From Escherichia coli (GTDB lineage Bacteria > Pseudomonadota > Gammaproteobacteria > Enterobacterales > Enterobacteriaceae): a stretch of DNA of 64,000 nt. Position 1 is the first letter of the stretch, and the number at the start of each line of letters is the position of its first letter. This document shows positions 39,001-48,000 of this stretch, piece by piece. The stretch lies in the NCBI RefSeq assembly GCF_045037415.1, contig NZ_CP173438.1, one strand, 5' to 3'. The position numbers were made by a program.

Positions 39001-42000
39001 CTGGCGACAGCAAAGGTGCTGAAATTCCCGGAAGTGCAGATGCATGAAATCCTGAGTGACTTTGCCAGAATGATTCCGGCAGCACTGGATAACGTGAAGA
39101 CTTCATTACCGACAGATTTTCCGGAGAACGTGGTGACGGCAGTTGAAACCAATGTGTTGAGGTTGCACGATCGGTTAAGCCGAGAATACGGTATTAAGTA
39201 AGATATGGGGTTTTGGTCGTTGTTAATGAGCAGAAATCATGAACCGCCAACGACTGGATTCGCCCTTGGTTTATATTGGTGCGCATAATGTATATTATGT
39301 TAAATTGATTATGAAGGTCCTTTACTTCACCATTCACATCCACACACAGATAAATCAATACGTTGTGATTTCTGACTTCCCTCCCGTTTCGGTAGAAAAA
39401 TCAACCTCTGTTCAGTGATGGCACACCATAGACCATGAGCTGGATAATTGCGTTGTTTACAGCAGCCAGCGCTTTGATGGCACTATATCCCTCACGCTTC
39501 TGAATATAATTCATAGCGCCGTGTAATTATCTTTAATCTCAAGTTAGCTAATCTCAGCATATCGTGTTGATATGCAATGTGAAATACAGAGAACAGTGAC
39601 TACAGCTGATGGAGGAAGCTATTTCCGATATTCGTCAACTTCCAAATATATCGTTTAAAACAGGTATCAGATATGAAAGCACTACTAATTACTGCATTAT
39701 TCATGGGATTCAGTTAGTTTCACCAGGCAAACATTAACCATAGCTAATGTTTATAGCCATATAAACTATTAGTACCTCTTGACCTTTCCTGACACTTCCC
39801 TTGTTCGCAATAATATTCTGTTTAGTCGCTGTTTATAAATAACATGCATAATGAAATCGTCATGTTATTTAGCGACATAAAATGTTTTTACAAATACTCT
39901 CTACAACAAGTGCAGCAATAAAATTGTTGTGAATAGGTGTCCTTGTAATTTAAAGATATTATCATTCTTCGTGAAATGTAATAACCATGGAAACTATATT
40001 CTCAGGGCAACATCCAATCAAGAATGATTCTTGTTTTATAAGCAATAACAGAATAACTTAATTGTTAACTCTCTTTATTCAGCTACTTAAATATAAATTT
40101 TGGAGAATTATGAAACTCAAACATGTCGGTATTATTGTCGTTTCTGTGTTGGCGATGTCGTCTGCTGCGGTAAGCGCAGCCGAGGGTGATGAATCAGTAA
40201 CGACCACTGTTAATGGCGGTGTAATTCATTTTAAAGGTGAAGTGGTAAATGCCGCTTGTGCGATTGATTCAGAATCAATGAACCAAACGGTTGAGCTGGG
40301 TCAGGTTCGTTCTTCTCGCCTGGCTAAAGCGGGTGACCTCAGCTCCGCCGTTGGCTTCAATATCAAGCTGAATGATTGTGATACCAATGTTTCCAGTAAT
40401 GCAGCTGTTGCATTCCTGGGTACTACTGTCACCAGTAATGACGATACATTAGCGCTGCAGAGTTCAGCGGCAGGCTCTGCCCAAAATGTCGGTATCCAAA
40501 TTTTGGACCGTACAGGGGAGGTATTAGTACTTGATGGTGCTACTTTTAGCGCTAAAACTGACTTGATTGATGGCACGAATATACTGCCGTTCCAGGCTCG
40601 TTATATTGCTCTCGGGCAGTCAGTAGCTGGTACTGCAAATGCTGATGCGACCTTCAAAGTTCAATATCTATAATTCACTCTTAAGGTGACTATGCGTCAT
40701 CTGAAATTGAAACAGGGTGTGTGTGGCATGGCTACGCACACCCGAGAAATTCACCAATGTTCATCTCATTATTAATGAAAAATGGTTTGTATTTTGGAGC
40801 GGTATGAAAAATCACATAATATCTAAACGATCAATAAACAACAGTAGTTAAACTTGCTGTTATTTAAAATATTTACTTGGTAGCAAGGTTTTCCTATCAA
40901 AAGAGAACCAACATTTATTACAAACGCATTAAGTCTGGAAACCCGGCGACTCGCCAATGTATTAGCAATATTTACCGATTGTCTGATGTAACGGTTTCCC
41001 CGCTTATCCTCTTAACACATGGAGAATGCATCAGATGCAAACTACGCGTACCCCCTACTCTGTTTCCTTTATGGCGACAGTGTTACTTTTATTTCTCTTT
41101 GCTTGCCATAGCACCATTGCCAACGCAGCTGTCGCACTTGGTGCGACGCGGGTAATTTATCCGGCAAACCAGAAACAGGTTTTATTGCCTGTCACGAATA
41201 ATGATCCTGCCAGTGTCTATCTCATTCAGTCATGGATAGAAAATGCGGGTGACCAGAAAGATACCCAGTTTGTCATTACCCCACCGCTTTTTTCCATGCA
41301 AGGTAAAAAAGAGAATACGCTTCGGATAATCAACGCCACTAATCATCAGTTACCAGGCGACCGTGAAAGCCTGTTCTGGGTTAATGTTAAAGCTATCCCT
41401 GCTATGGAAAAAGACCAGAAGAATGAGAATACATTACAGCTGGCAATTATTAGCCGCATAAAAATGTTTTATCGCCCCACGCATCTGGCAATGGCACCTG
41501 AAGAAGCGCCTGCAATGCTTCGGTTTCGTCGCAGCGGTAGCATACTCACTCTTATTAATCCAACGCCCTACTTCATTACCGTAACAAATATGAAAGCAGG
41601 AAATAGCAATCTCCCAAACACCATGGTGCCGCCAAAAGGTGAAGTATCGGTGGATATCCCGCATGCTGTAACCGGGGATATCAGTTTTCAGACAATCAAT
41701 GATTACGGTGCATTAACTCCGCTTATTAAGGCAACCATGCAGTAAGCCAGTGACCTAATTAATAATAAACTCAATCGGGATTAAAAATGACAGCCTTTCG
41801 TGCCGCATTTAAGGCATATCGTATGCATCAGGTGTTAATACTGCCTCGCTTTGCACGGCTTACCTTTGCCCTTGGCTTAGCAACTGCGGTTTTTCCCGTT
41901 GACGCAGAGTATTATTTTAATCCACGGTTTTTAAGCAATGACCTTGCTGAATCTGTCGATTTATCTGCCTTTACTAAGGGACGCGAGGCCCCACCTGGTA

Positions 42001-45000: not shown

Positions 45001-48000
45001 AGACTTCACAAGAGGTTCCTGTTAGCTACGTTTTGCACGTTATTTACAGCAACTCTCCAGGCCGCCGATGTCACTATCACTGTTAATGGTCGGGTAGTCG
45101 CTAAACCATGCACTATTCAAACCAAAGAAGCTAACGTTAATCTCGGGGATCTTTATACACGCAATCTGCAACAACCTGGTTCTGCATCTGGCTGGCACAA
45201 TATTACTTTGTCATTAACCGATTGTCCGATTGAAACAAGTGCAGTGACGGCAATCGTGACAGGTTCAACTGACAATACGGGTTATTACAAAAATGAAGGT
45301 ACTGCCGAAAATATTCAGATAGAGCTAAGGGATGACCAGGATGCGACGTTAAAAAATGGCGATAGCAAAACGGTTATTGTTGATGAGATCACTCGTAATG
45401 CACAGTTTCCACTTAAGGCAAGAGCTATCACGGTGAATGGAAACGCAAGCCAGGGAACGATCGAGGCGCTAATCAATGTGATCTATATCTGGCAATAACA
45501 TCAATTTGATTTTATTTGCCTCCTTTTTAAATCAATTTTTTAACCTTAGGATATATCATGGGTAAAACATTCAGTATAAAGGTCCTGTTCGGTATTTATC
45601 TTCTATTAATGGCAGGCAAAGTTTTTGCCTTTAGTTGTAATGTCGATGGCGGGTCAAGTATTGGAGCAGGTACAACCTCTGTTTATGTTAATCTCGATCC
45701 TGTAATACTACCGGGCCAGAATCTGGTTGTAGACTTGTCTCAGCATATAAGTTGCTGGAATGATTACGGCGGCTGGTACGACACTGATCATATAAACCTG
45801 GTACAAGGATCAGCTTTCGCAGGCTCCCTACAGTCATATAAAGGATCACTGTACTGGAATAATGTGACCTACCCCTTCCCGTTGACGACAAATACCAACG
45901 TATTGGATATTGGTGATAAGACACCGATGCCATTACCGTTAAAACTCTATATTACCCCAGTCGGAGCAGCCGGTGGAGTTGTCATAAAATCAGGGGAAGT
46001 TATTGCCCGTATTCATATGTATAAAATTGCCACGTTAGGAAGCGGAAATCCACGTAATTTTACGTGGAATATTATTTCAAATAACAGTGTTGTTATGCCA
46101 ACAGGCGGTTGCACCGTTGATAGTCGTAATGTCACCGTGAATCTCCCGGACTTTCCTGGAAGCGCAGAAATACCCCTTGGTGTATATTGCTCTAGCGAAC
46201 AAAAGCTCTCATTTTATCTTTCGGGTGCCACCACTGACAGTGCCCGACAAGTGTTTGCTAACACAGCACCAGATGCAACAAAAGCATCGGGCGTGGGTGT
46301 CTCTCTGATGCGTAATGGAAAAACACTGGCAACAGGAGAAAATGTCTCCCTGGGGACAGTAAATAAAAGCAAAGTACCTCTGGGTTTAAGCGCAACCTAT
46401 GGACAAACAGGAAATAAGGTTGCAGCCGGAGCCGTCCAGTCAGTCATTGGTGTCACTTTTATCTATGAATAATTGTGATTTTGACATTAGTCTATGCGCT
46501 CCATTCACGAAAATTGCGCGGATAATTATTTTGTGAAGGCTATTATCCTACACTTGTAAGAAAATCCGCGCACAATTGAAGCCAGAGTCTTATTTTTTAT
46601 ATTGAGAATTATGTTAATTTAAACCCTATGAGAGATGATGCTTAACTTATCGTATTTATACTACTCTATTATTTAACGATAATAGAGTAAAAATAGTAAG
46701 AGAGTAGTCCCCTACTCTTATATATCCATGTTGACGATAAACCCTATGTATATATTGTGCATCATCGCTATTACAAATCCTAATAATTCATTTCCACACA
46801 GGATAAGCAGATGAAGAAAAAAATTGAATCCTACCAGGGAGCTGCCGGTGGTTGGGGTGCTGTTAAATCCGTAGCGAATGCAGTACGTAAGCAGATGGAT
46901 ATACGCCAGGATGTTATTGCCATGTTTGACATGAATAAGCCAGAGGGCTTTGACTGTCCGGGATGTGCATGGCCAGATCCTAAGCACAGTGCGTCATTCG
47001 ACATTTGTGAAAACGGCGCAAAAGCAATCGCCTGGGAAGTCACGGATAAGCAGGTAAATGCCTCTTTCTTTGCTGAGAATACGGTTCAATCATTACTTAC
47101 CTGGGGAGATCACGAGCTTGAGGCTGCGGGACGTCTCACTCAGCCTTTGAAATATGATGACGTCAGCGACTGTTACAAGCCATTAAGCTGGCAACAAGCT
47201 TTCGACGAAATTGGCGCTCGCCTTCAAAGCTATAGTGATCCCAATCAGGTTGAATTCTATACTTCGGGGCGCACTTCCAATGAAGCTGCCTTTCTTTATC
47301 AGCTTTTTGCCCGTGAATACGGGAGCAATAACTTTCCCGACTGCTCCAACATGTGCCATGAACCGACCAGTGTGGGATTGGCAGCGAGTATCGGTGTGGG
47401 TAAAGGGACCGTGTTGCTGGAAGACTTTGAGAAATGCGATTTAGTCATTTGCATTGGGCATAACCCTGGTACAAACCACCCTCGCATGCTGACTTCGTTG
47501 CGCGCTTTAGTGAAACGGGGAGCGAAAATGATCGCTATCAACCCTCTACAGGAACGTGGCCTGGAGCGATTTACCGCACCGCAAAACCCGTTTGAAATGC
47601 TGACGAACTCTGAGACTCAGTTAGCCAGTGCCTACTATAACGTGCGCATTGGTGGCGATATGGCGTTGCTCAAGGGGATGATGCGCCTGTTAATTGAGCG
47701 CGATGATGCTGCAAGCGCCGCAGGTCGGCCCTCATTGCTGGATGACGAATTTATTCAAACGCATACCGTCGGCTTTGACGAGCTACGCCGTGACGTGCTC
47801 AATTCCGAGTGGAAAGATATCGAACGTATTTCTGGACTAAGTCAGACACAAATCGCCGAACTTGCTGATGCATATGCCGCTGCCGAACGAACCATTATCT
47901 GTTACGGAATGGGGATCACTCAGCACGAACATGGTACCCAGAACGTACAGCAACTGGTCAATCTGCTGTTGATGAAAGGTAACATTGGCAAGCCTGGTGC

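Follow-up and report, generated by a model that had tools for sequence, protein, structure and literature searches.

Does the DNA between the chromosome-dimer resolution site dif and the gene ydeP in this strain of Escherichia coli encode a complete F9 fimbrial operon, and does the AT-rich leader in front of the operon contain a regulatory device of its own? Both questions arose from a sequence-only reading of a 64,000-nt stretch of contig NZ_CP173438.1 (assembly GCF_045037415.1), which is hereafter called the window and whose coordinates are used throughout. That reading described six intact, co-oriented F9-type genes adjoining dif, and it singled out an inverted repeat and a small minus-strand open reading frame (ORF) in the leader as possible regulatory features. 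Its description of the genes was borne out by the ORFs, the full-length Pfam architectures, the identity of the adhesin FmlH, and synteny. We regard with high confidence, judging from these sequence comparisons, positions 39713-46472 on the plus strand as an intact F9 (Fml/Yde) operon, a gamma-1 chaperone-usher fimbrial system, in its usual locus between hipBA-dif and ydeP. The operon is an already known, well-characterised, and widespread system, present here in its canonical locus.

Six co-oriented, intact ORFs occupy 40110-46472 on the plus strand, each with one stop codon in terminal position both in the ORF list and upon exact translation, and successive genes are spaced by 361, 41, 13, 12, and 59 nt (Table 1). 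An internal frameshift in the usher or the adhesin had been named as an observation that would overturn the reading, and exact translation revealed no internal stop or frameshift in any of the six genes. The gene content that defines the F9 operon is present in these ORFs and their Pfam domains, as is the domain complement of a chaperone-usher pathway: PF00345 with PF02753, PF13954 with PF00577 and PF13953, and PF00419 in four subunits. Scores exceeded the gathering threshold for all of the F9 domains save the pilin domain of the adhesin (23.8 versus 25.6 bits). Family membership, the other point on which the reading could have failed, was upheld by the intact six-gene F9 operon at the same locus of enterohaemorrhagic E. 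coli (EHEC) O157:H7, to which the window is 96.9% identical in DNA and 97-99% identical in protein sequence. Wurpel et al. 2014 described the six-gene order, the hipBA and ydeP flanks, and a variable immediate 5' region (PMC3966885); hipB and hipA likewise lie upstream and ydeP downstream of the operon in the window and in strain SK1144, and the RefSeq order around the identical SK1144 copy is hipB-hipA-[gap]-fimA-like-chaperone-usher-ydeS-ydeR-ydeQ-ydeP-safA. The chaperone gene has a second in-frame ATG at 41026.

The adhesin ties the operon to an experimentally characterised protein. The lectin domain of FmlH is identical at 158 of 160 residues to the crystallised F9 pilus adhesin FmlH (PDB 6AOW; ten further entries), and the residues that contact the galactoside in FmlH, namely F1, Y46, D53, K132, N140, and R142 (PMC5866590), are all present. 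The two differences from 6AOW, Q27L and A121S, both fall outside the binding loops at 10-15, 44-53, and 132-142.

The 7.27-kb region (7271 bp) that contains the operon matches strains SK1144 and NR301 without mismatch save for one 2-bp indel, and by this comparison the strain is very close to both. The indel is a CA dinucleotide missing at 39235/39236 (GAGCAGAA[CA]ATCATG), between the hipA stop codon and dif; the dinucleotide is kept in SK1144, NR301, O157, K-12, and Nissle 1917, and its loss is the sole difference between the window and SK1144 over the 7.27 kb. At least 80% of the 7271-bp region is found in 3543 of 5426 complete E. coli genomes, and some part of it in 5412. An earlier survey reported intact F9 operons in 60% of 42 genomes and disrupted ones in all phylogroup A strains (PMC3966885). 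Finding an intact copy in this strain is consequently a matter of routine annotation, given that about two-thirds of complete E. coli genomes have one. F9/Fml pili are clinically relevant through FmlH, which aids chronic bladder and kidney colonisation by uropathogenic E. coli (UPEC) and against which galactoside anti-adhesives and vaccines are directed (PMC5866590). What the present analysis adds is small and leaves the understanding of the F9 system unchanged: the palindrome is put on the published promoter map, the leader is split into debris and a conserved promoter with its 5' untranslated region (5'UTR), and the K-12 deletion is delimited at single-base resolution.

The promoter of the operon can be read from an existing map. 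Rapid amplification of cDNA 5' ends (5' RACE) in CFT073 put the transcription start at a G lying 251 nt before the ATG, with a CATAAT -10 hexamer, a TAGTCG -35 hexamer, and an 18-bp spacer between them (PMC3966885). The window contains TAGTCG at 39823-39828 and CATAAT at 39847-39852 across an 18-bp spacer, and G39859 precedes the ATG by 251 nt (40110 - 39859 = 251), so that both sequence and spacing equal the CFT073 map. Repression of F9 by H-NS was demonstrated with an hns mutant, complementation, and an electrophoretic mobility shift assay on a 251-bp promoter fragment, and expression was seen at 20 °C and not at 28 or 37 °C (PMC3966885). The AT-richness of the promoter in the window (30% GC) agrees with repression by H-NS. 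Two of the checks that had been proposed for the leader, 5' RACE and H-NS binding, were therefore already published for CFT073 in 2014 (PMC3966885).

The description of the leader as AT-rich is correct, with a GC content of 34.6% from dif to the ATG and 30.0% in its conserved part versus 47.4% in the window. Its length of about 800 bp was also well estimated, as dif lies 76 nt past the hipA stop and 804 nt before the ATG of the major subunit, but the leader is not a single unit: about 400 bp of debris are followed by about 400 bp of conserved promoter and 5'UTR. Only 39713-40109 is common across E. coli, as found by alignment with O157 and K-12 and by blastn against Nissle 1917 and MS20659. 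The segment ahead of it has a composite origin. Positions 39202-39507 are collinear with Nissle 1917 and comprise dif and the last codons of a fragmentary gene annotated as 'acetylxylan esterase', such that 39306-39507 represents the 3' end of an alpha/beta-hydrolase gene remnant which is longer in Nissle 1917 and which there matches the AXE1, BAAT_C, and DLH profiles weakly. Positions 39508-39607 have no counterpart in Nissle 1917, and 39608-39712 (to 39715 in blastn) is the counterpart of what the MS20659 annotation lists as a 5' fragment of bhsA, with its ATG at 39673. The whole of 39306-39712 is unrelated to the segment of K-12 and O157 that contains yneL, an AraC-type helix-turn-helix pseudogene. 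The full 406-bp arrangement between dif and the promoter was found in 538 of 5426 genomes, including strains labelled O25b:H4-ST131. From these alignments, the sequence from dif to 39712 is to all appearances non-functional debris of rearrangements beside the terminus.

Clockwise of dif, B2 strains are variously rearranged, with a hydrolase fragment, a LysR gene split in opposite senses, a short-chain dehydrogenase/reductase (SDR) gene, and a bhsA fragment; the loci behind this comparison with 39306-39712 are L004:1759-3732 and L005:1-2655. The differing layouts of the dif flank, together with a truncated hipA in O157, suggest recurrent rearrangement beside the terminus. The dif site itself is single in the window even when up to three mismatches are allowed, and no further dif, intact or degenerate, that would signal an integrated dif-targeting element turned up when the window and the longer Nissle locus were searched.

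The inverted repeat at 39836-39871 exists and lies where it had been reported, with the correction that its arms enclose 14 nt and not 13. The pairing is perfect over 11 bp, beyond which the 12th pair (A39835/G39872) is unpaired. On the promoter map, the left arm spans -23 to -13 within the spacer between the -35 and -10 hexamers, the right arm spans +3 to +13, and the loop holds the -10 hexamer and the transcription start. Transcription covers the right arm alone, and any function of the palindrome would therefore be exerted at the DNA level. A 51-nt core-promoter block that includes the palindrome is 100% identical in 4208 of the 4877 E. coli records that match it (86%), whereas the whole 397-bp promoter region reaches at least 99% identity in just 790 of 4931 records (16%), and in a four-strain alignment no stretch stays invariant for longer than 28 nt, a run that takes in the loop together with the inner CATG of the left arm and the greater part of the right arm. 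Nowhere in the leader is conservation higher than in the core-promoter block, a pattern that would be expected of a constrained core promoter.

How much meaning should be attached to the palindrome depends on whether its symmetry has been selected. We consider it most likely that the palindrome is an AT-rich component of the H-NS-bound core promoter and not a separate switch. The competing view is that it constitutes a dedicated operator, either for a dimeric regulator other than H-NS or as a supercoiling- or temperature-sensitive cruciform that occludes the -10 and +1 positions and thereby sets the cold-only expression of F9. This view gains from the rarity of such pairing, since a perfect repeat of at least 11 nt with a loop of 3-30 nt arose in only 0.7% of 1000 dinucleotide-preserving shuffles of the leader, and from the exact placement of the repeat across the mapped -10 and transcription start, its invariance in most E. 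coli, and the fact that the promoter-mapping paper contains no occurrence of the term 'inverted repeat' (PMC3966885). The invariance within the species would arise equally from the core promoter alone, however, and the arms fare differently once promoters diverge. An operator should show dyad symmetry over the core promoter, which is seen here, and should have that symmetry kept or compensated in diverged promoters, which is not the case in either of the two diverged lineages compared: strain 100248 (about 90% identical) has two changes in the left arm and one in the right, with no compensation among them, so that 8 of 11 pairs persist around an unaltered loop, -10, and +1, and the distant ortholog at locus L009 (major subunit 77.5% identical) aligns over the -35/-10 stretch yet has no inverted repeat of at least 9 nt. 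The half-site centres are moreover 25 bp apart, a spacing that would be unusual for a simple dimeric helix-turn-helix operator, and the leader of this strain is devoid of regulator genes. H-NS motifs predicted at +8 and +14 overlap with the right arm, and it is H-NS whose binding to the f9 promoter has been published, on the 251-bp fragment (PMC3966885). A dedicated operator is on balance unlikely. The proposal that the palindrome is itself the functional element, whether as an operator for a repressor or as an AT-rich cruciform or H-NS nucleation dyad acting as a thermosensor, seems to us quite unlikely, for all that such a thermosensor or operator, if true, would account for F9 pili being made only at about 20 °C.

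The remaining suggestions for the leader fared worse. The minus-strand ORF at 39401-39514 was confirmed as an ORF of 37 amino acids, but its proposed identity as a remnant of a regulator of the F9 operon was not. The proposal draws on the variable 5' region of other strains, which contains three different hypothetical regulators (PMC3966885), and on the AraC-type yneL pseudogene at the matching position in K-12 and O157. A regulator remnant should carry a regulator domain or be collinear with a regulator gene in relatives; the ORF has no match in a Pfam search, and its DNA is instead collinear with the 3' end of the Nissle 1917 hydrolase fragment (AXE1/DLH-type profiles), the coding sequence of which is annotated in another frame. 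The ATG of the ORF lies beyond 39507, in the unmatched segment where similarity between the window and Nissle ends, and the yneL remnant of the other strains is on the opposite strand, its sequence being absent here and replaced by unrelated sequence. When two alternative C-termini of the hydrolase were scanned against Pfam, the profile match stopped short of the ORF region. A regulator remnant is very improbable. The idea that inverted repeats form a fim-like invertible phase-variation switch, which the sequence-only reading had offered as something to look for in read data, has in its favour that type 1 fimbriae, which use the fimS switch, have F9 as their closest relative, and that a weak inverted-repeat pair (23 nt, 74% complementary) at 39647-39669 and 40025-40047 flanks the promoter. 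A fim-type invertible promoter consists of a segment of about 300 bp between inverted repeats with adjacent tyrosine recombinases, an arrangement that is missing at this locus: the arms of the strong inverted repeat are separated by no more than 14 nt, the weak pair has its left arm within the lineage-specific debris, which most E. coli lack, and no recombinase gene is found between hipA and the F9 operon. The best local match between the leader and the fimE-fimA (fimS) region scored 20.6 bits, equal to the shuffled mean. All loci examined share the same promoter orientation, and the 397-bp promoter region occurs at 4938 places in 4931 matching records, which makes an inverted sub-segment very rare at most. 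With no recombinase, no similarity to fimS, and no alternative orientation among genomes, the switch was rejected and is of all these proposals the least credible, to the point of being negligible.

Several further observations concern the leader. The leader was also considered as a fossil of fimS, a candidate set aside when its similarity was not above the shuffled background. The first 102 nt of the 5'UTR fold no better than shuffles (z = 0.03). A near-palindrome, AATCAAGAAT-G-ATTCTTGTTT, lies at 40016-40036 (about +158 to +178 of the 5'UTR) and is kept even in the divergent strain 100248. A small inverted repeat with one mismatch, ACAACAAGT-N10-AATTGTTGT, is found at 39903-39930 (+45 to +72 of the 5'UTR); it pairs better in O157, K-12, and Nissle, and its end abuts the start of the K-12 deletion (39931/39932). 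Species-representative genomes were scanned for the exact 22-mer of the core promoter, a pattern that proved too strict, given that the recombinant locus discussed below (L008) differs from it by one loop base. The scan returned one match, to E. coli DNA in a mis-binned metagenome-assembled genome (MAG), and so carried no cross-species information; the E. coli species representative apparently lacks the exact 22-mer.

Published work on orthologs of 97-99% identity supplies the account of how the operon would function. Transcription would begin at G39859 from a sigma-70-type promoter (-35 TAGTCG, -10 CATAAT), and H-NS would bind the promoter DNA of about 30% GC, keeping the operon silent at 37 °C and allowing expression at about 20 °C. 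A single transcription unit would comprise the 251-nt leader and all six cistrons, and within it the stable hairpin past the major-subunit gene probably tips the stoichiometry toward the major subunit. Sec would export the subunits, the PapD-like chaperone would cap them, and donor-strand exchange at the usher would polymerise them into a pilus tipped by FmlH, the lectin domain of which would bind glycans with terminal Gal(beta1-3)GalNAc/GlcNAc (PMC5866590). The experimental reports of H-NS repression, of expression at about 20 °C, and of this glycan binding concern CFT073 and UTI89.

The hairpin consists of a GC-rich 13-bp stem, with a minimum free energy of -24.1 kcal/mol (z = -4.4) that none of 200 shuffles equalled. 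It is kept in O157 and in strain 100248; at the same intergenic position L009 shows another hairpin, with a T-rich stretch behind it. No T-run follows the hairpin on its 3' side, and it is hence not a canonical terminator. By analogy, it may be a candidate intercistronic attenuator of read-through or a stabiliser of the major-subunit messenger RNA. The gap between the major subunit and the chaperone was also considered as a decayed fimI, but similarity was not above the shuffled background.

Some considerations weigh against the account given above. Expression, H-NS binding, pilus assembly, and glycan binding in this strain are presumed from near-identical orthologs, and Q27L and A121S may affect FmlH, although both are located outside the binding loops. 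The contribution of the hairpin to stoichiometry is drawn by analogy with other fimbrial operons, and the hairpin is missing the T-run. The palindrome, being unusual relative to shuffled leaders and unmentioned in the promoter paper (PMC3966885), may have a dedicated function.

Searches for additional elements were negative: an Rfam scan of 38900-47000 at E <= 1 returned no RNA family, no transfer RNA genes were found in the window, and a simple pattern scan 3' of the adhesin gene found no plus-strand terminator.

Table 1. Features of the F9 operon and its upstream region, in window coordinates (aa, amino acids; RBS, ribosome-binding site)
Feature	Position	Strand	Evidence or remarks
dif, XerCD chromosome-dimer resolution site; upstream boundary, outside the operon	39278-39305	+	Exact 28-mer GGTGCGCATAATGTATATTATGTTAAAT
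Lineage-specific filler	39306-39712	.	blastn against Nissle 1917 and MS20659 with RefSeq annotation
ORF, 37 aa	39401-39514	-	ORF list; lies on the 3' fragment of the hydrolase gene
Conserved f9 promoter region, about 30% GC; predicted H-NS target by orthology	39713-39858	+	Match to CFT073 elements; conserved in O157, K-12, Nissle, and strain 100248
Perfect 11-bp inverted repeat TAAATAACATG-N14-CATGTTATTTA	39836-39871	.	Arms 39836-39846 and 39861-39871
5'UTR, 251 nt, from G39859 to the base before the ATG	39859-40109	+	Start placed from PMC3966885; RBS GGAG at 40102-40105
F9 major subunit, FimA-like, 187 aa from the RefSeq ATG	40110-40673	+	Pfam Fimbrial E = 7e-31; WP_001296074.1 in SK1144
GC-rich 13-bp hairpin	40715-40743	+	42 nt past the major-subunit stop, within the 352-361-bp AT-rich gap
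Periplasmic chaperone, PapD/FimC-like, 236 aa from the RefSeq start	41035-41745	+	PapD_N E = 1e-39, PapD_C E = 1e-11
Outer-membrane usher, 883 aa, intact	41787-44438	+	PapC_N 1-146/146, Usher 1-549/549 (E = 4e-200), PapC_C 1-65/66
Minor subunit ydeS, FimF-like, 176 aa	44452-44982	+	Pfam Fimbrial E = 4e-22; RefSeq annotation
Minor subunit ydeR, FimG-like, 167 aa	44995-45498	+	Pfam Fimbrial E = 5e-10; RefSeq annotation
Tip adhesin FmlH (ydeQ), 304 aa, N-terminal lectin and C-terminal pilin domain	45558-46472	+	FimH_man-bind 1-145/145, Fimbrial

Among known systems, the operon most resembles the F9/Fml operons of UPEC CFT073 (c1931-c1936), UTI89, and Nissle 1917, which have the same six genes in the same order at the same hipBA-dif/ydeP locus, with the same promoter hexamers and the same 251-nt start distance. 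The F9 proteins of Nissle 1917 are 98-99.5% identical to those of the window, and FmlH departs from the crystallised protein by the two substitutions given above. The Nissle segment between dif and the promoter is longer, containing a hydrolase fragment, a LysR pseudogene, and an SDR gene where the window has about 400 bp of remnants. EHEC O157:H7 has a palindrome and core promoter identical to those of the window and differs at the -35 hexamer (TAGTCA versus TAGTCG); it further stands apart by a truncated hipA and by the yneL pseudogene that separates dif from the promoter.

K-12 has, at the same locus, a promoter region that is the same up to +73 and the same three distal genes in its ydeQRST cluster, but it retains only a 5'-truncated usher pseudogene (ydeT) along with ydeS, ydeR, and ydeQ. 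The degenerate state of K-12, with an usher pseudogene and neither major subunit nor chaperone, had been stated in the sequence-only reading and is accounted for by a deletion corresponding to 39932-43211 of the window (3.28 kb), with TTGTTGTG joined to GAACCAAT at the junction. Lost with the deleted segment are the greater part of the 5'UTR, the genes for major subunit and chaperone, and ~475 codons at the start of the usher gene.

More distant relatives are found in other settings. A six-gene F9-like operon lies beside transposase genes at L009-L011:8001-14518, that of L009 being flanked by insertion sequences, and one member of this cluster is named Morganella morganii by NCBI; relative to the window, the major subunit is 77.5%, the chaperone 66%, the usher 69%, and the adhesin 63% identical. 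A further F9 relative (L012) lies between an ATP-binding cassette (ABC) transporter and ecotin. From the contexts of L009-L012 it follows that F9-type operons exist beyond the hipBA-ydeP locus. A 25-kb contig in a 'Candidatus Nanosynbacter' MAG (L007:4-3937, JARKOR010000214.1) holds E. coli f9 DNA (96.3% identity over 3.45 kb) and dif, which is almost certainly E. coli contamination or mis-binning; it was the source of the single 22-mer match among the species-representative genomes.

The nearest system outside the F9 family is that of the type 1 fimbriae (fimAICDFGH with fimB, fimE, and fimS), which shares the chaperone-usher architecture and the two-domain adhesin of FimH fold; phmmer aligned the window adhesin with FimH chains at E = 9e-80. 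The kinship is close enough for a natural f9A::fimA recombinant, represented by L008:7033-16567 (GCA_902850055.1, CADHRM010000080.1). There, hipBA, dif, and the f9 promoter are followed by a hybrid major-subunit gene whose first ~93 residues are those of F9 with one substitution and whose remainder is divergent and presumably FimA. Downstream lie fimI, with 99.9% identity to its E. coli counterpart, and a set of type 1-sized genes for chaperone, usher, minor subunits, and adhesin, whose products are just 43-58% identical to those of F9; genes with GntP-permease and UxuA domains come next. In L008, recombination between the paralogous major-subunit genes has linked a type 1 operon and its flank to the F9 locus, and the join may reflect either a genuine large rearrangement or a chimera of the assembly. 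Type 1 and F9 nonetheless differ in three respects: type 1 has fimI where F9 has the 352-361-bp non-coding gap with its hairpin and no fimI-like gene; F9, unlike type 1, is without recombinases or homology to fimS; and the F9 adhesin binds galactosides, whereas that of type 1 binds mannose (PMC5866590).

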